A DNA stretch of 63,846 nucleotides, filler included, from Kipferlia bialata (lineage: Eukaryota): assembly GCA_003568945.1 (NCBI GenBank). It is 4 parts of 4 records of this genome, joined end to end, with 100 filler letters (N's around TTAATTAATTAA, not from the genome) between each part and the next. Parts side by side here need not be neighbours in the genome. Positions count along the whole stretch, not along the records: positions 20,449 to 40,671 come from BDIP01000385.1; 3 more parts are not named here. One strand, 5' to 3'. The position numbers and the translations under genes were made by a program. Each line of letters starts with the position of its first letter. Positions within the stretch are counted from its first letter, which is position 1. The notes beneath the pieces were generated by a model. The model saw only the letters and a list, made by a program, of their open reading frames with translations, was not told the origin of the DNA and made no database searches. Shown one piece after another: positions 20,349 through 61,089 of this stretch.

Positions 20349-20448
20349 NNNNNNNNNNNNNNNNNNNNNNNNNNNNNNNNNNNNNNNNNNNNTTAATTAA
20401 TTAANNNNNNNNNNNNNNNNNNNNNNNNNNNNNNNNNNNNNNNNNNNN
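20349..20448. other. Artificial contig linker (N-run, TTAATTAATTAA, N-run)
   Basis: The 12-mer gives stop codons in all six frames and is flanked by Ns. A poly-C tract precedes it. Confidence 0.95.
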
Positions 20449-20537: not shown

Positions 20538-23500
20538 TTAGTGGACATTGGCTAGCTGTCCTCTCTGACCATGATGTCCATATGTATGACCTTACAGACA
20601 CCCAGTGGATGGAGTCTCCCTACCCCACACAGGTACAGTCTTATGGATATACATAATACAATTGGTGGGGGCAGTTGTATATTGTATTTTCTGTCTCGAT
20701 TCACCTGGTGATCTCACCCCTGTCCCTCCCCCTCCCGCACCCCTTGTACGAGACCTGGGACAGCATTGAGATGGACTCTCCCTCTCTAGCCATGGACTGT
20801 GTCTCTGGGGTACCCCGTCTGGCACTAGTCACTCGACATGACTTCCTAGTCTACTCTCTCTCCCCCTCCTTAGAGTGGAGACTAGAGCAGACACTACCTC
20901 TAGACAGTGAGTGGAGTCATGGACACCAAGACAGAGTGCAGGTATTAGCATATAGTACAATAACCCCCCCCCCCCCCTATTCCTCCTATAGGTATTTTAT
21001 ATGCAGCTCCCTCACACCCAGGTATCTCTGTATGGCGACTCTCTGACCCTGTCATCAGGGGGCACTCTCCTCTGGTACTCTCTAGATACCAGCAGAGACA
21101 CCCTCCTACCCTCTGACAGTGTCACCCTTCCTCCCACTCTCTCTGTGTCGTCAATGGTATCGTGTGAGGACGGAGTGTGGGTGAGGGGTGATACCCTCGA
21201 TGCTACTGGAGAGCAGTTGCCTGTGGTGTCACTGTACACTCACCCTGTCTCTCTCCCCTGGAGAGAGAGAGAGAGAGACCTGGAGGTAGAGGATGAGATC
21301 TACTACTCCAAGACGCTGTCTTCCAGGCCTGGGTATGCATCCAATGCCCCACCCAGTGTCCAGAAAACCAATGCAGTGACTGCCTCAGCGGCCACCGCAA
21401 CACCTGCTTCTACCTCTAAGAGTGTGGTATCCTCTTCACCCCTTCCTTCTACCCCCCGCTCCCCCTTCCCCCCTCCTGTGATGGGTATGGGTATGGATAT
21501 GGGTGTGAAGGATGCCACCCCCGACCCAGTATTCACACTAGACACCGGCACTGACCCCACCTCCACCCTCTCCTCCTCTGCCACCCCCGCAGCCTATACT
21601 GGTACCAGTATAGCAACACAGGCTGAGTGGATGGTGGTAGGGGCAGAGGGAGAGGCAGCCGCTATTGGTATGGTGTATGTGTATGAGAGACAGGATGACC
21701 TCTCCTGGGCTCTCTCCCAGACCCTCTCTCCACCTGTGGGTACTGTACCCACTACTGTGGATGGTACACCCACCCTCTCCTATGGCCATACAGTGTCTCT
21801 TTCCCCCACCCTCGTCCTAGCCATCAGTGCCCCCCACTTGTCTGTAGATGGCACAGACTCTGTCGGTGGGGTGTACATATACACACTGGTGGGTGGGTCT
21901 TGGGCGTTGGATACCACCCTCCTACCCCCTGTATCTGTCGCTGGTACCATGTTTGGCTCCGATGTTGCGCTCTCTCCCTGGCAGGCTGTGGTGGCTGGTG
22001 TCTCCAGTGTATACCACAGCGCCTATTCTGCTGGTATATGGGGTGAGGTGACCACTGTCCCTGAGGCGGTGGCCGGTGTATACGCCCTAGGGGTGGTACG
22101 TGTGGGAGCTGCCGGTCACTGGGTATCTATCATGACCCACTCCCATCTCTTCCTCTACCACACCGAGGAGTATGGGTGGGCGGATGTACCGACCCAGACC
22201 ATTGAGCACGGATATGATACTGATGATGTCACTGTCACACTGAGTGTACATAGTGAGAGTGCCAGCCTCGCTCTCTCTGCATATGATGCTGGGAATGCAT
22301 GTGTGGATGTGTACTCTCTGTCTGAGTCCACTTGGGTGTTTCAGACCACCATCACTGGGGTACAGGGTTCCACACTCTCCCTCTATGCTAGCACCCTAGC
22401 CATAGGGTCAGAGGCTGGTGTGGAGGTATACTCCAATGACTTCTCATCTGGGTGGGTGAGTACACTATCCCTCACACCTGACCTAAGTGGTGGTGCATGT
22501 GATGTGGCACTCTCTCCATATGGTCTCTTTGTTGGTGCTCCTGCTATTGAGTCAGGTGGCGGTGGAGTGTACTGGTTCTCAGCTGCTGTACCCACACCCA
22601 CACCATCCTCCGCCGTAGAGACGCTTCTAGAGGAGCTTGAGGTTGTACCTTCCCTACTCCAGCCTAGTGTGACTGCCAGTGCTCACGCTGGGCATGCTGT
22701 ATCCTCTAGTGCAGACTGGATAGCTGTGGGCGCCCCTAATGACGCTAGTGACGAGGGCCGTGTGTACATGTACCAGACCGTCCCAGACACTGGTGTGCAT
22801 ACACTCCACAGCACCCTCTCCCCCATTGGTACCCCAGTTGCATCAGGGGGTGAGATACTCTTTGGCCAGTCTGTCTCACTCTCTGGTGACAGACTGGCTG
22901 TGTCTGCTCCCAAGGTGCAAGGGTCTGGTGTCGACGGAGTGGGTGTGGTGTACATGTACCACTACAATGTGGACACTTGGGAGGAGACCGCCACTCTGAT
23001 ACCCCCTGTCAGCACCCTTGACCACTCATTCGGTACTAGCATCGGCCTGAATGGTGATCACCTAGTTGTTACGGCAGCGGATACTGTGTATAGTGTCAGG
23101 TACACTGAAGGGTCGGGGTGGGGGACTGTGACGCCTGTGTCAGAGCCTGTTGTTGGTGCATTCGCTGGCCTTACCTCCCAGATCTCTCTCGATGGAGGCT
23201 GGGCAGCTATAGTCACATCCGACCTATTGGTTCTGTATGACCTGTCTCTCTCAGAGTGGCACCTGCAGACACCCTACCAGACCATTTCCCATGGATATGC
23301 CACATCAAAGCTAGGTGTGGATCTAGACATGGAGTCGGGTCGATGTGCTATCAGTGTCTACGATACTACTCTCCAGTGTGTGGATGTGTATGGCTACGTT
23401 GACCCCACCTGGGTTCTAGAACAACACTTGACGGGAGTAGTGGGGACCAGCATATCTATGCATGGGGCTCTCCTTGCTATCGCCTCCGATATCAGTGTAG

Positions 23501-26500
23501 AGGTGTATGCCCATGACTCTACCCTTGGTATCTGGGGACACACCACCTCCATTGCACCTGCTGAGAGTACACAGATAGCATCTGTGGATATCTCTGACGG
23601 AGGTCTTGTTGTTGGCGACACCCTGCTTACTAACGCTGCTGCAGCAGAGGCTGGTGGGGTGTATTCTATCCCAATCACCTCTGTGAGCCTAGGCTATCTC
23701 ACACTACCCGGGTCCCCCAGTGCCTCCCTATTAGAGCAACTGGCTATTTCCCCCACACTCCTTCAGCCCTCCTGTGCTGCTGACGCCCATGTAGGTGCTA
23801 CAGTAGCCACCCATGGACACTGGTTAGTGATTGGAGCCCCTCAGGAATCAGCTCTGAGGGGACGGGTATATGTCTACAAGCTCCAGTCTAGTACTGGTGA
23901 CTGGCTACCTTTCCAGATTATTGATCCCCCTGTTTCATCCTTAGCGTCGCTTTCTGGTAGTCTAGAGTTGTCATTTGGACTCTCAGTGGCTGTTTATGGT
24001 GACAGGGTTGCTATTGGCGCCGAGGGTGAGAGGCTAGACGACCTCGACCATGTCGGTACTGTCTACACCTACACACTCTCTGGGGCATCGTTTGAGCTTG
24101 AGACCAAGTTCAGCCAGACAGTGAGTGCGGCTGGGTCCTACTTTGGAAAGAGTGTGGCCTTAGGCGATACAGACGTAGTCATCGGAGCAGTTGGCGATGT
24201 GTATACCTCCCGACTCTCTGAGGGAGTCTGGGGCTCCCTTCAGGAAGTGGTAGATCCCACTGGGACCTCTTTCACTTCTGATGAGTTCTCTCTTGTGGTA
24301 GACGAAGGCTGGTTGGCGGTACTCACCCGGAACGATCTCTACCTGTACAAGACTAGTACAGACGCCTGGTACTCTGCGCCTACCCAGACTGTCACCCATG
24401 CCCTCGACTCCACCACCCTCTGTCTTACCCTGGACAGTGGGAGTGGGTGGGGCCGACTCGCTTTGGGTGAGACAACCGCCTCCACTGTCGATGTGTATGT
24501 CTATGACTATCCAGACTGTGACTCTGACGCTGAGTGGGCACTGGAGCAGCACCTCTCAGCTATGAGTGTGGAGCATGTGGCTATCTATGGGTCCAGCCTC
24601 ATTCTATCCTCTGTAGGAGGGACAGCTGTCTACCTGCTAGATACAGTATGGACTGCCGGTCCTTCTCTCACACCTGCCCTCAATGGGGAGTTGTCCTCCC
24701 TCACCGTCTCTGAGCATGGGGTGTTCCTCGGGTCCTCTGCATTAGAGTCAGGCGGCATTGCCGGGGCTGGGGGTATAGTGGTGTACTCAGCCACAATGCC
24801 GTCCCTTCCGTTTGAGCCTTGCCTCTCACTTACAATGCGTGCCCCTGGAATCACTGTTGTGGGAGACTCATATGTCATAGAGGCCTTCCCAGTCGACAAG
24901 TGCGACAGCATTGTCTCTGGTACGAGTGTGTTCATTACACTGTCAGACTCCACTGGTGACATTCTAGAGACATGGTCAGTGGATGACAATGCAGTAGATG
25001 GGGTGTACTCTGTGACACATACCCTAGACTCCGTAGGAGAGTACTCTCTCTCCATCTTTGCGGAGGACCTGTCTGTGTCGCAGTCCCTCACAGTGTTAGA
25101 GGAGGCACCTGGGGTTGTATACCACTACCCGCCTATTGACAGCTACACACTGTCTGATTATAGTTACGACGAAGAGTACCCACTGAAAGCCTCTGACAGC
25201 AACACCTTCGTTTGCGAACATGATTATGGAGTGTTTGCTGTTTTTCACAGAGACAGTCACAATGTCGAGAGCCGGTGGCAGTATGTTCAAGATATTGAGT
25301 TGCCCTCTGAGTCTCGTAACTCTGCGTATCATAACTACTTGTCTCTCGCAGTCGACGGAGACTGGATAGCTGTTGGTGACTGGCAACTCAACAGTTATAG
25401 TGGCGTTGTTTACCTCTTCAAGTTCAGTGATGGAGAGTGGGGGTATCATGAAACCCTGCTGCCCCCAACAGCTGTGTCGTACCTGTACTTTGGGTATGCT
25501 GTTACCATCGGTTCAGACCTTATTATGGTGACAGCTAACGACTATGTATTCGCAGTTGAGTACTCCCAAGAGACTGGTACATGGGGATCTGTATTGGGAC
25601 TTGTGAGAGAGTCATCAGACCAGTTTTACAAATACACACAGATCCAAACTGACGTCACTGACAACTGGGTATTCGTGCTAACTCCGAGATACTACTATTG
25701 GGATGCCAACCTCCTGTATGTATACGACCGCACATCTCCGGACTGGGTGTCGGCTCCCCTTCAGGTAGTCTCTCTTTCCAATTCATCTAAGAGCGACAAC
25801 TCTGGGACGCTAGCAGCTAGCCGCAGTCATGATAGAGTCGTAATTGGAGTATTCTATAACTACGATTCGTATCCCTATGGGCTGGACATGTACAGCGTAG
25901 CGTACAATGGGGAACAATGGGTTGAGGAGGACAGCATTACCAGCGATTATGAGAAGCGCGGCAACACAGACCCAATGTCTACCGTGGCTTCCAACGGTGA
26001 TATTGTAGTAATTCGCCACTTTGAGGTGACATATGTCCAGATATTCAACGACGCTACGTCTGTTTGGGACACAAGGACCATTGGGAGGCCGAGTTCTGAT
26101 GACTTGGGGACATTTGCAACTCTGAGTTTGTGGGACAACGTCGAAGTGGTTGGAGAGTACATTTACCTGTACCCACAGGACGAAGTGTATGTGTATAGGG
26201 CGGCAGACCTATTTGTGTCTGAGGAGTGGCCTCTGGTGTCAGAGCATGTGGATCTTAAGATGACCCATACACAACCCAGTACGGGTTCCTTGACTCTATT
26301 CGATGCATACGGATATAAAGTCACTTCCAAAGTGGCTAGTCAACCAGAGTGTACACACGGCCTAGCATCTTCCTCTTGGGATAGTGAGGAATGTGTGTCT
26401 GCCCTCTCGTGGTCCTTGGACATGACATACGATGGTATTCAGAGGATGGAAGTGCGTGTAGGTGGAGAGCTTTTGGCAACTCGCACCTTGTATGTGTCCA

Positions 26501-29500
26501 CACTCTCCCTCTTCTGGGCTGCATCAGCTGAGTTTTCAGCTGCATATTCTGATGTGTGTGAGCGGCAGACATTCGACGTTGATGTAAGAAACAACGTTGG
26601 AGGACTGATGCCTGTGGATTACGGTGCTTCCATCACTGCAGGGTTTGACAGTGATGTCTTAGTCTCACCAACCTGGGTATCTAGTTCCAAGTCATACCGG
26701 TTCTCTGTACACGCACCTGCCACTGGTGGTCAGCACACTTTGAAGTGCTACATCGACGGAGAGGTACCCATGACTGCACTACACATATATACATATATAC
26801 ATTCTCCTGACACTTATCCCAGGTGCTAGCCACTGAGACGGTCACCATCAGTCGCACTACCAGTGAGGCCTTCTCTATCATAGAGGTTGCTGCGACGGTG
26901 CCCCCCAACACCCCCTTCACCATAGTGGCATCCCCGAGGGATAGCTGTGACGCTGTGATTGGGGGCCGTACTGTAACTCTCACTGTCAAGAACAGTAACT
27001 TAGGTGTGTCAGAGACCGCAGCCCTCGAGGATAGTGGCGGTGACCCAATGTACGCCCATACATTGTCGCTTGCCATTGAGGGAATCTACACGATTACAAT
27101 GACTGTCGATGGTGTTACCAAGACAAACACTGTCAATGTTGCTTCAGCCAGTATCGATATTGGGGGCACGTCACGGTACATCTCCTCTCAGTACTCAGTA
27201 CTATCTGGTACTCCTACCACACTAGGAGAGGCATTTACGGTGACTCTGGTCCTTAGAGATTCCGCCGATGTCCTTGTGAGATCCAATGCATACCCACTCT
27301 TTGGGTTTGACACTGAGATTCTTGTGGCTGGCACGTGGAGTTCCTACTATGACCAGTACACATACTCTGGTGTGGTGTGTGGACTATCTCTGGACACCTC
27401 AGCGTTCCAAGTAGAAGTGGGTGGGAGCATCTTGCTCTCTGTCCCCATTACTCTGACTCAGAGTGTCAGCCAGGCTGAGTCTGAGATTGATGCGGTAGAC
27501 ACTGTCCTCCCTGGAGCATCAGTCACCTACACACTCCTCCCCAGGGATGCATGTCGTGTAGTCATGGGTGGACTCACTCTGTCATTCACGATATCCTCGT
27601 CTGACGGGTCTATTCTGGTTGATGAATCCGTCACTGATGTTTCAGTGGCACTTGAGTACACACATACTGTTGTGGTACCGGTTGAGGGTGCATACACAGC
27701 TACAATGACCTCTGGGGACGTCGCTATACAAGACACCCTCTACGCATCTCCCCACGCGATTATGAGGGACGGAAAGTACCGATACCTCTCTCCATCTCAG
27801 TCCACCCTCGTTGGGATCCCCACCTACATATGCTCCTACGACATCGTCCTAACCCTCGTCGATGTCACTGGGACCGCCATTCCTGTCAACCTCTATCCCA
27901 AGCTGGGGTTCGACTCCTCTCTTGGACTTGCAACATGGGATGAGACGTCACAGAACTACACACTCTCCGGCAGTGTATGTGATGGCCATGCAAGTGCGAC
28001 CACCTTCTCAGTTGAGGTTGTAGGTGTGGTGATCTTCAGCGAGGCCGTTTCGCTGGCAAGAGATATGTCAGAGAGCGAGTCAGTGCTAGAGCTGCTCGAC
28101 TTCTGCACCCCAGGGACTGTAGTCCCTATCACTATGCAACCCAACGATGGGTGTGGGACAGTCTTCACTGGCCTGGACGTGACTCTCACTGTCCTCAACC
28201 CAGATGGATCAGAGTACTCGACTGAGATTGTCACAGACAGTGGGGGAGGAGTGTACAGCACATCTACAACACCTACATCTGAGGGAGAGTACATTGTCAG
28301 TATGTCCACTGGAGATTTGACAAAGAGTCACACGCTCTCTGTTGCAGTCCTCTCTGTCTTCCTAGGGGGGAGCTACACCCACGTCTCTGCAACCTACTCC
28401 TCTGTCGCTGGATTGCCCTCTTCTGCGGGCACATTTATCGCCTACCTCTCCCTACGCGATGTCACAGGTGCACTTATCACCCAGAACCTTGCACCGGTGA
28501 TGGGGTGGGAGGGGTATACCAGGACTGGTGCATGGGACCAGGACAGTAGTACGTACTCTGGTATGAGCAGGGTGTGCTCTCTCGGACCCCAGACCTACAA
28601 GGCCCGGGTTGGATCAGTGGAGATCCTCTCCATAGACACCACCATCCTGGAGTATGGGTATCTGTCACAGAGTCTTAGCCAGGTGACTGTCACACCAGCC
28701 GCAAGTGTAGGCGGTACTATAACCGTGACAGTGACACCACAGGATGACTGCGGAATAGCTGTGGCTGGCAAGGTGGTGGAGTTGTCGATAGTGTCAGGAC
28801 CCTCCCCTATGGTTGTGACCCAGCACAGGACAACAGAGGTAGATGGGGTATACACATACTCATACAGTCCCACTGAGGAGGGCACCTACGCTGTCAGTGC
28901 ATATGTTGGCAACACCCAACTTGAGGCCACGATGAGAGGGTCGGTGTCTCTGTACGAAGTGATAGATGTAGACGGTGCCACACAGTATGTGTCCTCCAAC
29001 TCTGCACTGGAGAGTGTTCCTGCATCCGTGTCTTCAGCAGAGACAGTGACCGGCGTAGTTACTCTTAAGGACTACAATGGAAACATCATCGACAAGGAGT
29101 GTCCTGTCACTGTAAAGTGGAGAGGAGGCGATGCTGGGACAGTGCAGTGGCAGAGTGACAGTAAGACTTACACAGTGTCACTCACTGCTCCCTCTTCCAT
29201 GGCCCTTGGTGCTGACCTCTGGGTTGATGTCTCAGTTGATGGCAATCCCCTACTGTCAGCCCCTGTGACTCTTGCCCTGTCATTCAGTCCCTCTGGAGGT
29301 GGAAGCATTGCAGTATCAAGTGTAGCTGGCCTCACCATTCCTGATCTGACAACCTGTGAGACAGTCAGTGTCACATTCCAGTTGGTGGATTCTGACTCTA
29401 CTGCCGTGACAGCTGATCTCTCTGACTCTCTTACTGCCGGCTGGGACGGTGTCTTTGATGCAACACCAAGCTTTGATGGCACCAATACCTACTCCGTCTG

Positions 29501-32500
29501 GATCACGGCTCCATCTACGGTAGGAGAGCATGAGTACTCTGTTCGTATTGGATCAGAGGTCGTGTCAACTGAGACTGTGTCTGTCTCCCAGAGTGTGTCT
29601 AGTGTCACCCTATCCCTGGTTCCTGAGGTGTTTGTGGTGGGAGACGCCTTTAGTATGGTAGTGGAACCCATTGATGAGTGTGGGGCAACAGTACTAGGCC
29701 AGCGTGTCTCCCTTAGGGTGACAAGTGGGTCTCTGGTGATACACGAAGCTGTTGTCTCAGATGTGGATAGTGTATACTCAGACTCCTACACGCTGGATAC
29801 TGAGGGTGTGTACACTGTATTCATGGTGGTTGGTGACGTTGAGATTACCGAGCAGATCACTGTGTCAACAGTAAGTGTCACTGCGTGTGACACTGTGTTC
29901 GACGTTTCATCCACTCTTGGTAGAGTCACAGGCCTACCTGAGTACTATGGAGAAGACTTCAGTGCTGGTGTGACTCTCTATGCTGTCAATGGCTCTGTAA
30001 TTGACTGTGATATCAGTCCAGTTATTGTGTGGTCATGTGGCGATGTACAGACTGTATGGAGTCCAGAGCTGTCACAGTACATAGTCACCGGTAGTGCCGC
30101 ACTAACTGGGGACTGCACTCTCACAGTGAGCCTTGACTCTCACACACTGGTGGCCAAGACCGTAACTCCCCTTACTGACACCCATCTGTCTCAGGGCCAG
30201 TCCTATCTGTCGGTTACTCCCCAAGTGTCAGTGGGTGAGGATGTCACGGTCTCTGTGTACCCCAAGAACCAGTATGGGATGGGGTTGACTGGCAGACTGA
30301 TCTCTGTGTCAATCCTGGCCGGCCCCTCTCCTGTTGTAATGTACCGGGGTGTGACAACCGAGGGTAACCCTGGAGAGTATACATACACTTACACACCAAC
30401 GTCAGAGGGAACCTACCGAATCAGTGGATACGTCGGCAATACCCTTCTCGAGTCCTCAGCTGATGGGAGTGTCGCTCTCTACACGGTTGCGGACTCTGGG
30501 ACAACTTACTATGTATCCACACTTTCCTCACTTAGTGGGTTGCCACAGAGAGTGTCACTTGACGAGGAAGTGGCTGGCACTCTGGTCCTTAGGGATGGTG
30601 CTGGTGCACTAGTCTCTGCCCAGCTGGATGTGAGTGTGGCATGGGATGACGGCACTCCTGGCATGGCTGTGTGGGACGGTGTGTCCACATACGCAATTAC
30701 CCTCACATCACCTACCACTATTGCGGGTGTTGGTACCCGAAGAGTAGTGGTCAGTGTTGCTACTCAACCACTAATGGAAGTTGATGTAGAAGTTGCTCTT
30801 GCCGCTGCCTCTGAAGGGGGTGCAGAAGTACACGTTACTGCCATGGCAGGGCTATTCATTGGACAGCTTCACACCTGTGAGACTGTCACACTGTCTCTGC
30901 AGCTAGTGGATAGTGGTGATGTCCCTATTACATCTGACATGAGTAGTGACCTATCCTGCGGGTGGGACGGTGCGAGAGACCTAGCACCAGAGTGGAATGG
31001 CGTTAGTATGTACACGCTTGATGTCACTGCGTCCTCCAGTGTTGGCACGTACACCGTATCATGCTACCTTGGGGCTGTATCCTTAGCTACTGAGAGTGTG
31101 TCTGTGTACCAGATACCATCTCTTGACACTAGTGTCGAGGTACCCACCAGCGTACAGGCAGGGACTGACTTCGACATACTAGTCCTCCCCGTTGATGCAT
31201 GTGGAGCACCTGTATCAGCGGTTGTGGAGGTGGAGATACTGACAGAGAGAGGCACTCTCTTGGAGCATGCCATACCTCCACCAACATCCCTTGGTAGATA
31301 CACCCACCCCACAACTATTGAGGCAGAGGGCACCTTCTCAGTGAGCGTCACAGTTGGTACACTATCCTTCACACGTGTGCTTCGTGTAGCTGCTGCACAG
31401 GTTACAGTCGCTGGTGTTGACTGCTACCTCGCAGCTTCTCTCACCACCGTGTCTGGGCTGCCTGTATACAGAGACGCACCCTTCACTGTCGATGTCACTG
31501 TCTATGACGTATCTGGGGAGAAGGTCAGTTATGATCTCTCGCCCTTAATCAACTGGACGTGTGGCACACTGGGTGTGACATGGAGAGGAAGTGTCAAGCA
31601 GTACTATGTGACAGGCAACGCTGGTGACAAAGCCTCCTGCATATTCAGTGTATCTGTGGATTCCATGGAACTGTACTCTGAGGTAGTTACACTCCAGGTT
31701 GACAGCTACCTGTCTCAGAGCCAATCTTCTATAGCTGCCGTTTCCCAAGTGGCTGTGGGTGATGACTTACTGATTGAGGTGTACCTCCGTAACCAGTATG
31801 GGAGTATACTCTCCATCCCCCAGAGCGTCACTGTGTCAGTGCTCTGTGGCCCTTCCCCCCTCACTATGGAGAAGGGGGTTGCAACTGCAGTAGCTGGAGG
31901 CACATACCAGTATACCACGTTGTTCCAGACGGAAGGTACCTACACGATCACAGCCAACGTAGGTGCCTCACAGATAGAGGACACAGTGGCTGGGAGTGTG
32001 GCGAAGTACAGACTTGATGTCGATGGCATCCCCCACTTCGTCTCTTCCAACTCGGTTCTCTCGGGACTTCCCAGCACTCTGGAGATTGGCGCTTCTGCTA
32101 CTGGCAGTCTCTCTCTCAGAGACTCTGCTGGCGTGACATCCACCACTAGGTTACCACTCACTATGTCGTGGGACGATGGCACTCCTATCAATGTCACGTG
32201 GTCTCCTGCAACCCACTCCTACCGTGTGCCAGTTGACAGTCCATCTACAATGGACGGTGGGGGTATCAGATCCCTAGATGCTTACCTTGACGGACGTCTT
32301 CTGCTGACCTACTACGTGGCAGTTGCAATGAAGGTTACGCTCGAGGTCCCCGACCTATCTACACGATCACCTGGCACTCCCAAGAGTGTGTCTGTGGATC
32401 TGTGGATTGGGGGAGTCAGTGGCCTAGATGCATATCCTTCAATGGGAACGTGTGAGAACGTGTCATTCTCTCTCAATGTACTAGATGACACAGAGACACC

Positions 32501-34880
32501 TATCCAGTATGACCTTACATCATACCTCACTATGGGATGGGATGGAGCCAAGGACATGGTACTGCGATTTGACCCTGTCTCTCACTCTTATTCATGTGAC
32601 ACTGTCAGTCCCTCTGACAGTGGTGCCCACTCCTTAGAGGTGTACCTAGAGGGTGTGTCTATTGGACATGAAAGTGTGGGTGTCAGCCAGGTCAGCGTGT
32701 CCGACCTGTCTACAGTGACAGTGCCCTCTACTGTCACACCCAATGAGGCATTTGCAGTGACTGTCATGCCTCTTGATGCCTGTCTAGCCCATGTGACAGG
32801 ACTCACTGTCGATGTACTTGTTAGAGACAGTGCAGGTCAGTCAGTGGCCCATGCCCCTGCTGTTGAGGGTATGGGTGACTACACACTGAGTGCAACACTC
32901 CCTGAGCCTGGTACATACTCGGTTATTGTCAAGTATGGATCCACATCTGTCATGACTTCTGTTACAGTGGCTGCCCCTACAGTCGAGCCAGAGCCAGAGT
33001 CCATCGGGTCTATCCGTACTATGATGTATGGGGTGATTGTGTTCTCCCTTGCCATGGGGTGTCTGTCTGTGTACAGCATCACTAGAGGTGACCACAAGAC
33101 GCTAGAGCCTTCGCGTAGCTACGACAAGAGCGAGGAAAGAGGCATCCACGTCCCTAGTCTCAAGCGCCAGGCCTCAGTCAGAGGGAGCCTACGCACCTTG
33201 CCCCAAGTGGCGGCCACTGACATGCGTCTCAACACACCCTATGGGATGTCGTCCGTGCCCCTCTCTGACACTCTCGTACCCGTCTATGTAGACACCCTTG
33301 GTAGTGCCGCCAGGTTGCTGCCTGTGGTGGTCTCCAGTGAGGAAGAGAGAGTGCAGTTAGAGAGAGATGTGGCCACTCTACAGCTGATGGGGTCTGAGTA
33401 CCACCTTCCCCTGATAGGCTATGCCGCACCTGGGTTCCTATTGGCAGACCAGGACTGGGCCGACACCCCATGTGCCACCCCACAGGTCTCGCCTAGGACA
33501 CAGACACAGAAGGATCCCGCTGTACCATCCACACTGGTGGATGCTGTCCTCAACGCATGTAGTACTGTTGTGCCACCTAGACTGTCCAACGTAGCGGCAC
33601 TGGTCTTTGCCGATATCGGAGGTGAGCTGCTGTCAGACTATCTCAGAACAGCACGCTACACAGACCAGCGTCTAGACCTGTGCCTCCAGTTAGCCAGGGC
33701 TGCGCGCCACATACAATCAGGACAGTTCCTTACACATGGCCTATCAGAGAGCAGTATTCTCGTGGACAAGGGTGGATCGATAGGGGTGTGCACCCACATC
33801 CTGGGCCACTCTCTTGATCCAGGGTCGATTCTCAAGAGAGGCCCGACTAGGGGACTGTTTGATGCCAATCCACCAGTCACCACCACACTCTCGGACGTTA
33901 CTACTCTCCTTGACACCATCTGTCCCACTGATCTTGCCACTGTCATTGCGGGTCTCTGCATGACTCTTCGTATCCATGGGGTGACAACTGACTCTGTTGA
34001 GAGAGCACTAGCTACTGCTGTCAGTGAGATTGTGACTAAGTGTGCTGATATGCCCCTCTGCTCTCGCTCTGTGGCCCAAGACTCTGTGCATCGAGCAGTC
34101 ACTGTCACGTTCCCCTTCTGTGGGGCATCCATACCCACTGGTAACAGCTGGGACTATCTCGCTGGACTGCTATTCCCAGGGGCCCCTCGGGGCCATGTAT
34201 CCAAGCTTCGCACCCGCTACTCCCAGTATGTTCTACTCGACATTCCAGCTACACGACTTCGGGGATACAAGGCGGCACTACGCCGATCCTCTCTCTCCTT
34301 TGCCCCTGGCCTGCCACTACCTACCCAGGAGTGTGTTGGAAAGATATGCTCTAGGCACAGTCGGGTGAACCCTGGCTCCGTACCCTCTGCTGTATCCAAC
34401 AGGATCATTGCATATGTGGGCACAACAGTATCCCAGGTGGCTGGGAAGAGACTGCCCCTAGTCCACGCCGGACCTCTAGGTACTGGTGTGTACATGACAA
34501 CATCGCTTAAGGCGGCCCTAGCTACTGCAGACAGCAAGGCCCAGAGAGACGGGTCTCAGGGTGTTGTACTATGCTGCGAGGCCATTCTAGGCAGGGTGGC
34601 TCCTATAGCGAGTGCCGAGAGTGGGAGTGCATACCAGTTGGTGGTGAGGGGCAGGCCTGCCACTGAGGCCGAGATCACTGTTTTGCACTCTGTGATGATG
34701 GAGAGAGGTAGCATGAAGACTGGGTTCGACGTACTCTTGGTCAAGGAGAGCAGTGTTCTACTCTTTGCTGCACTGACCCTGAAGGCCCAGGGTACGGGAC
34801 CTAGAGAGACTGTACCCAACACTCCTACCACTGATGGAGTCTCAGTGCCATTCTGCCCTGGGTCACCCTCAGAGCAGTGA
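20538..34880 (+). CDS. Giant single-pass receptor/adhesin-like protein (>4,700 aa, 5'-truncated): FG-GAP beta-propellers, Ig/filamin-like repeats, TM helix, pseudokinase, degenerate PARP-like ART domain
   Basis: ORFs 21001-26829 and 26823-34880 are joined by a 59-nt GT-AG intron (26764-26822; GE|VLATE), with upstream introns ending at 21021. FG-GAP-like motifs: WIAVGAP..GRVYMY, FGQSVSLSGDRLAVSAP, FGKSVAL. Repeats of V.P.D.CG...G.YT...PT.EG.Y.V. TM segment MMYGVIVFSLAMGCLSVYSIT at about 33021-33083. Confidence 0.85.
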
Positions 34881-35060: not shown

Positions 35061-38000
35061 CTAGTACCCCCCGTGCTCCTTGATGAGGTGCCTGTACACT
35101 GGTCCCTGTGTAGAGCTCACATACCCGCACTTCCAGCACCAGTGCTTGCCACAGTGGCAGTGCATGTGGTTGCACCCCGCTGTCTTGTTCACAGCCACCC
35201 CACACCCAGGGCAGGTGTGGACAGTATCGGACAGTTCTCTGAAGCTGGTCAGTGACTGGTTGAGTCTCTCCACCGCCACAGCCTCGGCCCTTCTTCCATC
35301 GCCAATGGTGATACCAACGGCGTCACAGCTGTCCTGGGGTGAGAAGGTGTACCGAAACTATATATATTAAAGTTGCATACCTGAAATGCCAGGTCGAGAT
35401 TGGCCAGACAGCAGTCAGGCACAGTGACACTGCTAGAGCACTGGTGGGCAGAGGGGAGGGCCAGACGAGGGGAGTTCTCAGCAAGCACCAAGGTGATGGG
35501 CCTCTGGGGTAGCATTGAAGACCCAGTGGCGAAGACTAGGAGGAGTCTAAGCAGGGTGTCGCTCTCTAGCCCTATCTGGGCATCCACGAAGGCGTCAAAG
35601 GCCTGGCGCAGCACCGAGCTCTCAGTGACAAATGCCACCTTGTACTGACTAGCACTGATAGGAGCCACAGAGGCTGAGGCCTTGACAAACTGGTCTAGGC
35701 TGAGGGCACTGACAGTAGACGCCCACTCTGCGTGTAGAGAGCAGTAGCCCCTGTGGATCTCTCTTCCAGCCACCATCATAAGACGGACATACGAGGTCTC
35801 AAACAGAGTGGCAAACTCGTCGCTGTTGTGCTTGGAGAGCACCTTGTCAGAGTCGGTCACACCCGGAATGGAGGTGAAGGGTACCGGATGGAGGTTGGCG
35901 AGTGTACGCAGGAGTGACCGGCGCTGGATAGGGAAGGTAGATGCAAAGACCCTAGACACAGCAGCCTCGTCCTTGAGGAAGGTGTCTATCCCTCCGTGCA
36001 TAGCTGCATACACAACCATGCCAAACAGGCCGTGGGGGAGGGGGCCGTCCAGAAGCTGAAAGGCCAGGAAGCGACCGAGTGCAGCGTAGTGCATGCGCAG
36101 ATCCTTGACGTACTCACTGTCCCTGATGCATGTGGAGTCCTGCATAAGGGTGCAGCCACATATAGAGGGGACAAGCTGGTACTCTCCTAGTCCAGCACGC
36201 TCCAGCAGAGGCACGTTGCACTTCCCCACAGGCTGCTGTAGGCAGCATACCAGCCGCATAAGTGGGCTCTGCTCCTCACTCTCTGGGTCTTCGGTACTCA
36301 GTCTGCAGTATCCCTCTATGGAAGCCGTGTCTCCAGGGTTGAAGTGGGAGACGAGAGACTCGGGAGAGCAAGGGACACTCTCTGCCTGAGCCTTCACTCC
36401 CTGCACCTGCACCCATGTCTGCCCCGCCAGAGCCTCCAGCCTCTGCACTGCGTCAGGACTGCTAGAGGCAGTGACGGCTGACTGAGCGAACAGGCCTGCC
36501 GCAGCCATGTGGTAGGCCGAGATTCTGTTCTTCTTGCTGCCTAAGCACCTGCGCACAGCACTGACCTCTCTTGCTGTCAGGTCTGGGCAGGCAAACTCCC
36601 TGTAGCGAGCCTGGCCGAAACCCCTATCAGGGCCACTGAAGACGTCCTCAACGGTGCGGCCGAAGGAGTAAACGTCTGAGAGAGAGTCAAAACACCCATC
36701 ACTGGCACTTTCGCTGTCGATATAGTGCATGGTGCCGCAGATGGTGCGTCTGAGGGTGGTGACGTAGTCCTGGCTGTTCTTGGAGATGTCAAAGTCACCT
36801 AGTGCAACAGAAGAGACCACGCCCTCGCTGTGCTTGAGGAACACGTTCTGGGGCTTGATGTCCCTGTGTACTACACGGTGGCCCTCAAGGACAGCCATGG
36901 CCAGCAGTAACTGCCTGACTATGTGGCGTCTGGTCTCGATTGGTGCCTCGGGATAGGCGCGTAGGTACTGCATGAGGTTGCAGTCGTACTTCTCTGTCAC
37001 GAGGTAGCACTTCAGCCCCTCCACGACAAGGCCCATGAACCGTACAATCAGCACGTCACGCACAGTCTGGTACACAGAGACCTCCCGTCTAGCATGCTCC
37101 ACATCTGTGATGTCGTCAAGGTTGTACTCCTTGAGGACAACAGGGAGGTTGGACTCGGGGTAGACACCCTCATACATGGGAAGCCTACCAGCCGAGGGGA
37201 ACTCAACTGGCTTGAACTGGTGGAAGGGGATATCCAGGCAGGTGCCGCAGAAGGGGGCTAGGCGGGTTGTGTCAAGGGGGTGTCTGAGGTATCTTGTCCT
37301 CAGTACCTGTGGTAAGAGTGTCTCACTATACCTAGACTGCACATGCACTACTCAATCGTACCTCAGCTGCCTCAGGGTGCTGGCTGTGACGCTGCAGCCT
37401 GGTCATGAGGCCACGTCCCCTAGTCATAGTCTCCATAATGGTGTCTCTCTCATTCTGCAGCACCCTGCTCTCAGCTTCGAGGGTATCCCGTGCCCTTTGG
37501 GACCTGGCCCTGCGGATACGCACTGCGTTGAGCTCAAGGCTCTCCTCAACCTCATCAAGCCTACAAGTGAGAGGCTACTTAACAGTGTAGGCGCAGAAGT
37601 ATATGCAATAATTGTATATGGGATACATCGTTACGACCAGCTCTACTGCGCCCGATGAGGTATAACAATGCAGTTAACCGGTACCTATCAAGTGAGATCT
37701 GGGGAAGAGCCTTCACACCCATAATGACCTCCTTCATATCCTTCTCCTCCTCTCCTCTCTGCAGCAGTCTCTGGTGGAGGTCTTGCACCCTGCTGGCAAT
37801 AGCAGTGGCACCAGCAACACTAGCTAGATCAACACCCGCTAGGGCGTCGACACACTTCTGGAGATCCTCCTGGCGAGGCATCAGAACTTCCACAGCGGTG
37901 TATGCGTCAGTGACAGAGCAGTTGTACTTGACAACGGTGCACACACGTGTGCGGACATCCAGAGACATGGCAGCAGTGGGTGCAGGGGGTATGATGGGTA

Positions 38001-40139
38001 GCAGTGCGCATACAGAGGTCACTGCTTGAAGCCACTCCTGGACACGGCCGAGGGCCTGGGTGGGGTCGACCTTGACTCCCTCTAGCTGAGCACAGCTGTT
38101 GTGGAAGGTCTTGGAGAGAGGGGTGAAGGAAGTTAGCAGAGGGGTCACGTCGCCACTGGCGAGACTGTCAATGGGGTGCTCTTCCATGAAGCACTTGAGG
38201 CTCTCAGCCGCACCAAGGAGAGCCTTGACCGAAGGGGTGAACACAGCTAGCTGGTCTAGTGTATAACCCACACCGTCTGTGTTGAGAGCGGAGACACTTG
38301 CCAGAGTGGCAGAAGCCCTCTCGGTGTCGAAGGGAGAGAAGGCATTGAACCTAGCCTCATAGTCGCTGATCTTCTCCATGAGAGAGTCTCTCTCAGCGGT
38401 GACGGCACTGAGTCTGTGTGTTTCCTGCTCAAGCACTGTGACTCTCTTCTTGGTCTCAGATAGCTGAGGTGAGTAACCTGTTAAAAATACTGTAACAATA
38501 CAGTCGTAGTTGGTCTCACTGTGTGACTCACACTATGAATAGTGAGAGGCCATAGACAATATTCACCTGGGTACCGGTGCTGGCCAGGTTCCTCTCTAGT
38601 GACTGTATCAGCTGAACAGTCCTCGGCAGAAGCTGGGAGTACGTAGTAGTAGATCCTGCTCTCAGGCTCCGGTCCAGGTCTAGGAGCTCCTGTTGCAGCT
38701 GGTCTCTCGCTCTCTGGTCCCTCCTCTTTCTATCTGCCTTGCGCCTCTCTGCCTGTGAGGGCCTCTCACGGAGCTGATCTTGGAGACGTACATCTGGTGG
38801 CACAGGATCCTCGTCTCCCACACCACCCATGTAGACAGGCACCACGTGCTGCACTGGGTTCGTGTCTGCATCTGTAACTGGTGTCTCCTCTACAACTGCC
38901 TTCTCGGGTGTGACCACCGTAGACGTCTCTCCCCCACCAACCACTGTCACGGGTCTTCCCACCATGAGACTCCTCTCACTGACCACATACACAGTGCTAT
39001 CGTTGAGAACACATGCACTGCCGGAGTCAAAGGGGACTGGCAGTGGGTCCCCCTTCCACCACTCCCGTGTCTGGGTGTTGTACATGTGGACCTGTCTACC
39101 ATGATGGGTACCCCCCATCACATGGATGTCAGTACCGAGACACACAGCGGCGGAAGCATGAGCCTGTGGTCAAATGTGAAATCAGTAATTGTGACATGAC
39201 ACGTCACTGTAGACACACTGACTCAGTGTGACACTGAGTTCGAAACGTTTCACTGTTGAAGGTGTCTCAAGAGAGAAACCACTGACAAGGAGTAGTTGTG
39301 TACAGCAGCTGTAGAGAGTTCTACACGGTCCATGAAGTGGAGGTTCTTGTCATATACTGATAAAGTAGTACTAGGTGTATATAGTACTAAGCATCCGGAT
39401 ATATGTTGTATACATATGTGCACACACGTATATGTATATTGAGTAGAAATACACCCACCTTGAATGGAAGAGGGGTCTCCTGGCTCCAGCTGGTGCCATC
39501 AAACGTCAGGTGCATGTCCTGACAAACACCCCCCATCACATGAGCAGCGTCCCCTACAGTCACTACACAAGCACTCTCGAAGCCAACAGGAGCATCAGAC
39601 ACACGACGCCACACAGATGTGTCAGGATTGAACTCCCAGCAGTCCCGGAGGGCCGGGGACCTCTTGCTGGAGTATCCGCCAGCCACGTATAGCATGCCAC
39701 CGAGGGTAAAGGCACTGTGGTTCATGCGCTGCTTGGGGCGCTGGCCTGAAGACAGGGATATCCACTCCTTGCTCTGGATGGTGTAGCGGAAGAGAGTGTT
39801 GAGAGTCCCATGCTTCTTGGTGCGTCCCCCAAAGACAAACACATAGTCACCAATGCGTGTAGCGGTGGCGCCCTGGGTACCGGAGAGTACCTTGCAGCCC
39901 TTGCCGGCAGATGGGTCTGCTATCAGGGCCCCGGCCGCAACCTCAGTGAGCAGCACTGTCTTGGTCAGCGGGTTGCGCTGATGGTCCAAGCCATTGTTTA
40001 CCCCAACAACCATGACAGGGCCGCTGTAGCCGTTATCTGTCAAGGGACCCAGGGGAGCCAGGCATGGCCGCCCCTCACCCTTACACTCGAGGTGGGTCTG
40101 GACGGTATAGGCCAGTCCGACTGACACCGCCATAGACAT
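35061..40139 (-). CDS. Kelch repeats / coiled coil / Ser/Thr kinase / HECT-like E3 / RBR-type RING2 fusion, 6 exons, 1,484 aa
   Basis: Exons 40139-39459, 39163-38567, 38463-37685, 37560-37362, 37306-35381 and 35333-35061 are all GT-AG and total 4,455 nt in frame. Kelch motifs YVFVFGG, LYVAGG, IHVMGG. Kinase motifs VVLKEY, HRDIKPQN, GDFD. HECT-like motifs LGRFLA and LLVFATGSS.LP...LPSAHQC. RING2 motif CPGC...KTAGCNHMHCHCGKHWCWKC. Confidence 0.85.
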
Positions 40140-40671: not shown

Positions 40672-40771
40672 NNNNNNNNNNNNNNNNNNNNNNNNNNNNN
40701 NNNNNNNNNNNNNNNTTAATTAATTAANNNNNNNNNNNNNNNNNNNNNNNNNNNNNNNNNNNNNNNNNNNN
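40672..40771. other. Artificial contig linker
   Basis: Same N-TTAATTAATTAA-N structure as the first linker. Confidence 0.95.
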
Positions 40772-60989: not shown

Positions 60990-61089
60990 NNNNNNNNNNN
61001 NNNNNNNNNNNNNNNNNNNNNNNNNNNNNNNNNTTAATTAATTAANNNNNNNNNNNNNNNNNNNNNNNNNNNNNNNNNNNNNNNNNNNN
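60990..61089. other. Artificial contig linker
   Basis: Same N-TTAATTAATTAA-N structure as the other linkers. Confidence 0.95.

Follow-up and report, generated by a model that had tools for sequence, protein, structure and literature searches.

One gene of Kipferlia bialata, a free-living anaerobic flagellate, encodes a protein in which a divergent HECT domain runs through a linker helix into a lone RBR-type Rcat (RING2) domain, and this pairing is found in a lineage-expanded family rather than in one isolated protein. Each module carries a cysteine at its catalytic position, and, judging from the sequences and predicted structures, there is a little less than an even chance that the protein is a ubiquitin ligase in which ubiquitin would be relayed from E2 to HECT Cys1375, then to Rcat Cys1448, and finally to substrate.

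The gene lies on the minus strand of the window (the whole 63,846-nucleotide stretch of DNA that was analysed) and comprises six exons between an ATG at 40139 and a stop at 35061. A first-pass annotation had placed a kinase–HECT–RING2 fusion at 35061..37306; those domains do lie within that extent, but the gene continues to the ATG and thereby takes in Kelch repeats and a helical region as well. The main features are as follows.

39459..40139, minus strand: exon 1, N-terminal region and first Kelch repeats, beginning at ATG 40139; identical to P0001 residues 1-227
38567..39163, minus strand: exon 2, more Kelch repeats and the start of a helical/coiled-coil region
37685..38463, minus strand: exon 3, helical region common to paralogues; no Pfam family above cutoff
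37362..37560, minus strand: exon 4, coiled-coil-like segment preceding the kinase
36488..37195, minus strand: protein kinase domain, about residues 790-1025 (Pfam and motifs)
35381..36460, minus strand: divergent HECT domain, N- and C-lobe, residues 1035-1394 (AF2, Foldseek, NEDD4 match, Atlas)
35438..35440, minus strand: HECT catalytic-position Cys1375 (LPSAHQC), codon TGC; Cys in 12 of 14 family records
35334..35380, minus strand: last intron, 47 nt, GT..AG, phase 0
35214..35333, minus strand: HECT tail G-I-T-I-G, which lacks a Phe, then the linker helix, whose length hardly varies
35061..35213, minus strand: Rcat/RING2, residues 1435-1484; stop codon 35063-35061
35172..35174, minus strand: Rcat catalytic-position Cys1448 in GCNHM, codon TGC, followed at +2 by His1450; in alignment it falls in the catalytic loop of parkin RING2

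All five introns are GT..AG, and the spliced frame is open for 1495 residues, or for 1484 if the upstream of two in-frame intron 2 donors is used (38566 and 38533, 33 nt apart, the latter adding 11 residues). The database model takes the donor at 38566, and a protein search with the HECT exon gave an identical match, P0001 (KIPB_002364, 1484 aa), together with four paralogues at 52-58% identity. The domain order is Kelch, helical region, kinase, HECT, linker helix, Rcat. The window consists of separate contigs joined by N44-TTAATTAATTAA-N44 spacers at 20349-20448, 40672-40771 and 60990-61089, so that neighbours across spacers are not real; the gene lies wholly inside one spacer-bounded segment (20449-40671; 20,223 nt), which rules out an artefact of concatenation. 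Within the same segment a very large gene of about 4,600 codons (20992-34880, plus strand) is convergent with it, the two stops lying about 180 nt apart. This neighbour encodes FG-GAP repeats, many Ig/filamin-like repeats and one likely transmembrane segment, after which a stretch resembling a pseudokinase and a GTGVYMT motif like that of PARPs can be made out by eye; its cytoplasmic part has no significant Pfam match.

The kinase that had been read ahead of the HECT-like region is confirmed by Pfam in exon 5 (E 9e-24). It retains the VVLK Lys, the alphaC Glu and HRDIKPQN, but DFG is replaced by DFD, and the glycine loop and APE motif are degenerate. N-termini differ across the family (Kelch here, LRR in P0004, others elsewhere), and the kinase is degenerate and without catalytic motifs in P0009 (a pseudokinase) and undetectable in P0018, which makes the HECT-Rcat pair the core of the family. 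The architecture first proposed holds for this protein, but across the family Kelch is one N-terminus among several, and members can do without the kinase. P0009 (KIPB_001096) is itself a Kelch-pseudokinase-HECT-Rcat protein and the member nearest to canonical HECT by Pfam score, and P0018 and P0015 (KIPB_000236 and KIPB_000237) are consecutive models that may be one split Kelch-HECT-Rcat gene without a kinase.

The HECT domain is real but divergent. The Pfam match in exon 5 is weak (E 0.001-0.005; 19.2 bits against a gathering cutoff of 23.9), the paralogue P0009 exceeds the cutoff (37.5 bits against 23.9, E 2.8e-9, profile positions 28-299 of 306), and five of the eight members in a HECT-only alignment match the HECT model at E<=1. 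An AF2 model of the domain built from 19 family sequences reached a pLDDT of 89.8 and a pTM of 0.86, and with this model all 40 matches listed by Foldseek (prob 1.0) and all 50 listed by VIA were HECT domains; the best among the matches listed was NEDD4 4bbn (Z 19.0, with an rmsd of 4.8 over 320 aligned residues at 15% identity). The top three clusters by Atlas features were likewise all HECT (0.93). PDB sequence searches with the HECT alone as query found no HECT, and word-index protein searches returned no canonical HECT relatives but missed even known paralogues, and are therefore uninformative. The first-pass reading hung in part on structure comparison recovering a HECT fold, and the NEDD4 match supplies one.

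Cys1375 sits in the Pfam-matched stretch of the C-lobe, in an LP..H.C loop, and the TGC codon at 35440-35438 is thus at the HECT catalytic position, as had been proposed. It is kept in 12 of the 14 family records that cover the position, a degree of conservation matched by 17 of 99 C-lobe columns, and two further HECT cysteines are kept in 10/10 and 11/14 records. The domain ends in G-[IV]-[ST]-[LIV]-G in most members, and about 80 more residues come after this tail; counted from Cys1375 there are 109, so the domain is not C-terminal. The ligation Phe at the G-x-x-x-G tail is absent in all 13 records, a single Phe flagged in P0008 lying upstream of the tail motif, after an insertion, and not being the tail Phe; conserved Asp residues are present in the tail. 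NEDD4-type HECTs have a beta-hairpin in the E2-binding subdomain. Here the subdomain predicted to bind E2 is short, and the model has no such hairpin between helices 177-188 and 210-239; the family nevertheless conserves this subdomain, with 12 of 54 columns invariant across nine proteins.

Exon 6 matches IBR-type Pfam models (E 1e-5), and the Rcat profile finds its counterpart in parkin (E 3.5e-6), HHARI, RNF216, CUL9 and HOIL-1, in each case in the zinc domain that comes last, the catalytic one in parkin, HHARI and RNF216, with the preceding tether helix inside the match to parkin, HHARI and RNF216. The GCNHM cysteine (TGC, 35174-35172) was thus rightly assigned to a RING2. Eight zinc ligands forming two sites are predicted (C1435, C1438, C1453, C1455, C1460, C1463, H1476 and H1481); Cys1448 is not among them. 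All eight, together with the catalytic-position Cys and a His at the parkin Glu444 position, are invariant in an alignment of 31 rows (13 family and 18 outside sequences), and the Rcat Cys is kept in 12 of the 13 family records reaching it. The residue two positions on is His in 8 of 12 paralogues and Arg in 4; of 122 outside relatives, 104 have His there, 12 Lys and 6 Arg. Over nine proteins conservation is highest in Rcat (mean identity 0.62, 18 of 50 columns invariant), the tail plus linker standing at 0.54 vs 0.52 for the C-lobe.

The absence of RING1 and IBR that had been noted before is borne out: upstream of Rcat there is no Pfam RING match, and the 260 preceding residues contain no CxxC. 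Among outside relatives of this Rcat, 64 of the 68 with at least 200 upstream residues have at least three CxxC there, a RING1-IBR-like region, and in this protein the HECT occupies the place that this region has in ordinary relatives. Many of the outside matches of about 1000 residues (P0025, P0028, P0035 and P0036 among them) combine an N-terminal VWA domain and a cysteine-rich region with the same ...Y.H....HGG subtype of Rcat. Joint modelling of HECT and Rcat gave little: AF2 from five sequences left the HECT at a mean pLDDT of 42.6, unusable for a Cys-Cys distance, Foldseek with this low-confidence model returned nothing at E<=0.001 and only weak HECT and RBR rows, and a complex prediction of HECT with linker-Rcat in which alignments were not used scored 0.00, uninformative either way.

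The join between the two domains depends on the last intron, since its retention would bring in a stop at 35249-35251 and no Rcat. The intron has the length and position first reported for it and GT..AG borders, and carries a CTCAC branch-like motif akin to the CTCAC/CTTAC/TTGAC motifs of the other four introns. All 11 of the 11 paralogues align over the full length of the spliced junction, at 40-64% identity and in eight cases gap-free, and the intron-retained product aligns only up to about the junction. The paralogue models were built by AUGUSTUS with transcriptome hints (PMC5874029, in excerpt), so these alignments are not wholly independent evidence. Run X1 is RNA by guess; it has 17 contigs at least 99% like this region and skips the GT..AG intron 26764-26822 of the neighbouring gene. 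One paralogue contig of X1, of low depth (3.9), joins 35337 to 35403 with 18 letters, exactly what is left of the genomic 65 once the 47-nt intron is removed, and its frame gives RLDIA, as in P0003 and P0012. A second paralogue contig, whose joints all have the depth value 6.93, covers parts of the HECT N-lobe, of the beginning of exon 6 and of Rcat. No transcript of KIPB_002364 itself is listed and X1 does not cover the gene at 92%, which is uninformative on expression. Splicing of the last intron, rather than the retention that would have kept the RING2 untranslated, is therefore supported by the paralogue alignment and a paralogue RNA contig.

Searching 1.84 billion representatives with a profile yielded 2745 matches at E<=0.001, of which the best 150 were examined. 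The HECT part was matched by 16 of the best 150 of 2745, all of them K. bialata records; the other 134 matched linker or Rcat only, and none scores with the HECT-only family profile (best E 0.33). The same architecture, for which a search in other protists had been suggested, was thus not recovered from any other organism among the best 150 of 2745 matches, and in a metagenome scan nine of nine loci were linker or Rcat only. With P0003, P0005 and P0153 added, the family stands at 19 records, some of them fragments; P0007 and P0153 share a 90% cluster. In the junction-spanning set of 13 Kipferlia records, from which P0153 was left out, both cysteines are kept in 11, and in eight of these 11 they are 73 residues apart. 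P0010 has lost both sites and P0013 the HECT Cys with its Rcat motif intact, both on long branches (2.56 and 1.96 vs a median of 0.62), as is P0015; in P0019, a partial model from a contig of 769 bases, the HECT Cys is present but the sequence that follows is not Rcat. The Rcat tree, which has too few columns to prove a single origin, places 12 Kipferlia rows on one side of a branch (SH-aLRT 83). It is likely that the module had a single origin, in which a kinase-HECT gene acquired at its end the linker and Rcat of an RBR gene, and that the family expanded afterwards.

There is reason to think that the two domains could act in series. The HECT N-lobe would bind E2, Cys1375 would take ubiquitin from it as a thioester and may pass it to Cys1448, and Cys1448 would then modify a substrate presumably chosen by the variable N-terminus, Kelch in this protein; the kinase may regulate the ligase, by analogy to Leishmania TKUL. 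E6AP still forms the thioester when it carries F849A or lacks its last four residues, but its chain elongation is impaired (PMC6463701, in part), and given that the tail Phe and free C-terminus are both missing here, the HECT looks able to load ubiquitin and poorly able to ligate it. A tail without the ligation Phe that runs on into Rcat thus favours a relay from E2 to Cys1375 to Cys1448, which we regard as plausible, with indirect support from the missing Phe and the fixed cysteine spacing. Counted against the relay are P0013 and P0019, each of which keeps one site without the other, the unexceptional conservation of Cys1375, the short E2-binding subdomain, and the Arg at His+2 in 4 of 12 paralogues.

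The main and serious rival to the relay, which we nonetheless consider unlikely, is that the HECT only docks E2~ubiquitin in a RING1-like manner, with direct transfer from E2 to Cys1448 and Cys1375 structural or vestigial. A BRcat-Rcat fragment of parkin without RING1 is active (PMC3940038, in excerpt), so an Rcat can work without an E3 cysteine ahead of it, and an E2 dock would fit P0013 as well as the retained RBR tether helix and the conservation of Rcat above all other regions. It fits less well with a Cys1375 that persists in 12 of 14 records, in its LP..H.C loop, at 35-60% overall identity, with a C-lobe retained in whole, and with losses of that cysteine confined to long-branch copies. 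It is rather improbable that both sites are instead loaded independently from E2s for different jobs, such as substrate priming and chain building or branching. Both cysteines are indeed conserved, and the HECT C-terminal carboxyl, which contributes to aminolysis, can be replaced by an acidic side chain (PMC13196369, as excerpted), and conserved Asp residues lie in the tail. Against it, the tail Phe is lacking in 13 of 13 records, no more than one E2-binding module is evident, and the near-constant spacing points to coupling. Slightly less probable again is a HECT that is the sole catalytic unit, with Rcat a zinc module binding ubiquitin or regulating the HECT: Arg at His+2 in 4 of 12 paralogues vs Arg or Lys in 18 of 122 outside relatives, and P0019 without Rcat after its HECT, would suit such a role, but Cys1448, no predicted zinc ligand, is invariant in the 31-row alignment and kept in 12 of 13 records. 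That the join is a gene-model artefact or the family a set of inactive relics is very doubtful, since the unseen mRNA of KIPB_002364 in X1, the AUGUSTUS origin of the paralogue models (PMC5874029, in excerpt) and several degenerate copies are set against a spliced junction shared with 11 of 11 paralogues, an intron-retained product whose alignment stops near it, and X1 paralogue contigs of which one crosses the junction in frame at spliced spacing and the other holds HECT, exon 6 and Rcat pieces.

Were the relay from Cys1375 to Cys1448 true, it would make for a new E3 class and a new way of building a ubiquitin ligase. Tentatively, and at not quite even chances, the family may be such a transthiolating class, in which a HECT that has lost its own ligation tail would load an RBR catalytic domain, with a five-step cascade from E1 to E2 to HECT Cys to Rcat Cys to substrate under kinase control and with exchangeable Kelch or LRR modules. 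Even if the HECT only docks E2, this would be an RBR-type enzyme with HECT replacing RING1-IBR. The existence of a natural, expanded family of this kind shows that thioester-forming E3s can have their loading and ligation steps combined anew. It also provides a small testable unit, about 450 residues and two point mutants, for the question of an Rcat being charged by a HECT thioester.

HECT and RBR ligases are regarded as two distinct classes, each having a single catalytic cysteine, and HECT is described as C-terminal. The Kipferlia domain resembles HECT E3s (NEDD4 4bbn, NEDD4L, UBR5, HUWE1, E6AP) in its bilobal fold over the whole domain (Z 14-19) and in the C-lobe Cys in an LP..H.C loop; it differs in its low identity (10-17%), short predicted E2-binding subdomain, missing tail Phe and the 109 residues that follow its Cys. 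With the RBR ligases (parkin, HHARI/ARIH1, RNF216) it shares the tether helix and an Rcat with Cys-x-His and two predicted zinc sites, but RING1 and IBR are lacking and a HECT lies upstream instead. The Rcat is of the type found in a protist, fungal and viral RBR subtype ending C..C...Y.H....HGG, and the third triad residue of parkin, Glu444, is His, as in ordinary members of that subtype. The HECT-Rcat protein is not canonical in either class, because its HECT lacks the C-terminal position and tail Phe of other HECT ligases and its Rcat lacks the RING1 and IBR of other RBR ligases.

By their descriptions, kinase and HECT share a chain in several ligases: the GL-Bikonta HECTs of Naegleria and Ectocarpus (PMC3673628, in part), Leishmania TKUL, whose kinase regulates the ligase (according to part of a review), and an Atlas kinase+HECT cluster of 71 members, mostly Streptophyta. 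No Rcat is reported or listed for these, whereas the Kipferlia protein has one; 'IBR' occurs 0 times in the main text of PMC3673628 as excerpted, and two of its supplements contain no IBR, Pkinase or Giardia, the architecture tables being perhaps elsewhere. The literature searched, in which subscription journals are largely uncovered, yielded no description of a HECT-Rcat fusion, the available part of PMC11354881 included. The precedent for a two-cysteine ubiquitin relay is MYCBP2 (PMC9527308, in part), in whose RING-Cys-Relay two catalytic cysteines in one chain have been shown to pass ubiquitin on, as is only proposed for Kipferlia; MYCBP2 pairs a RING with a tandem-cysteine zinc domain, whereas Kipferlia pairs a HECT with an Rcat and has no RING, and the folds are unrelated. 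The kinase-HECT fusion is thus already known, and what is new is the HECT-Rcat part.
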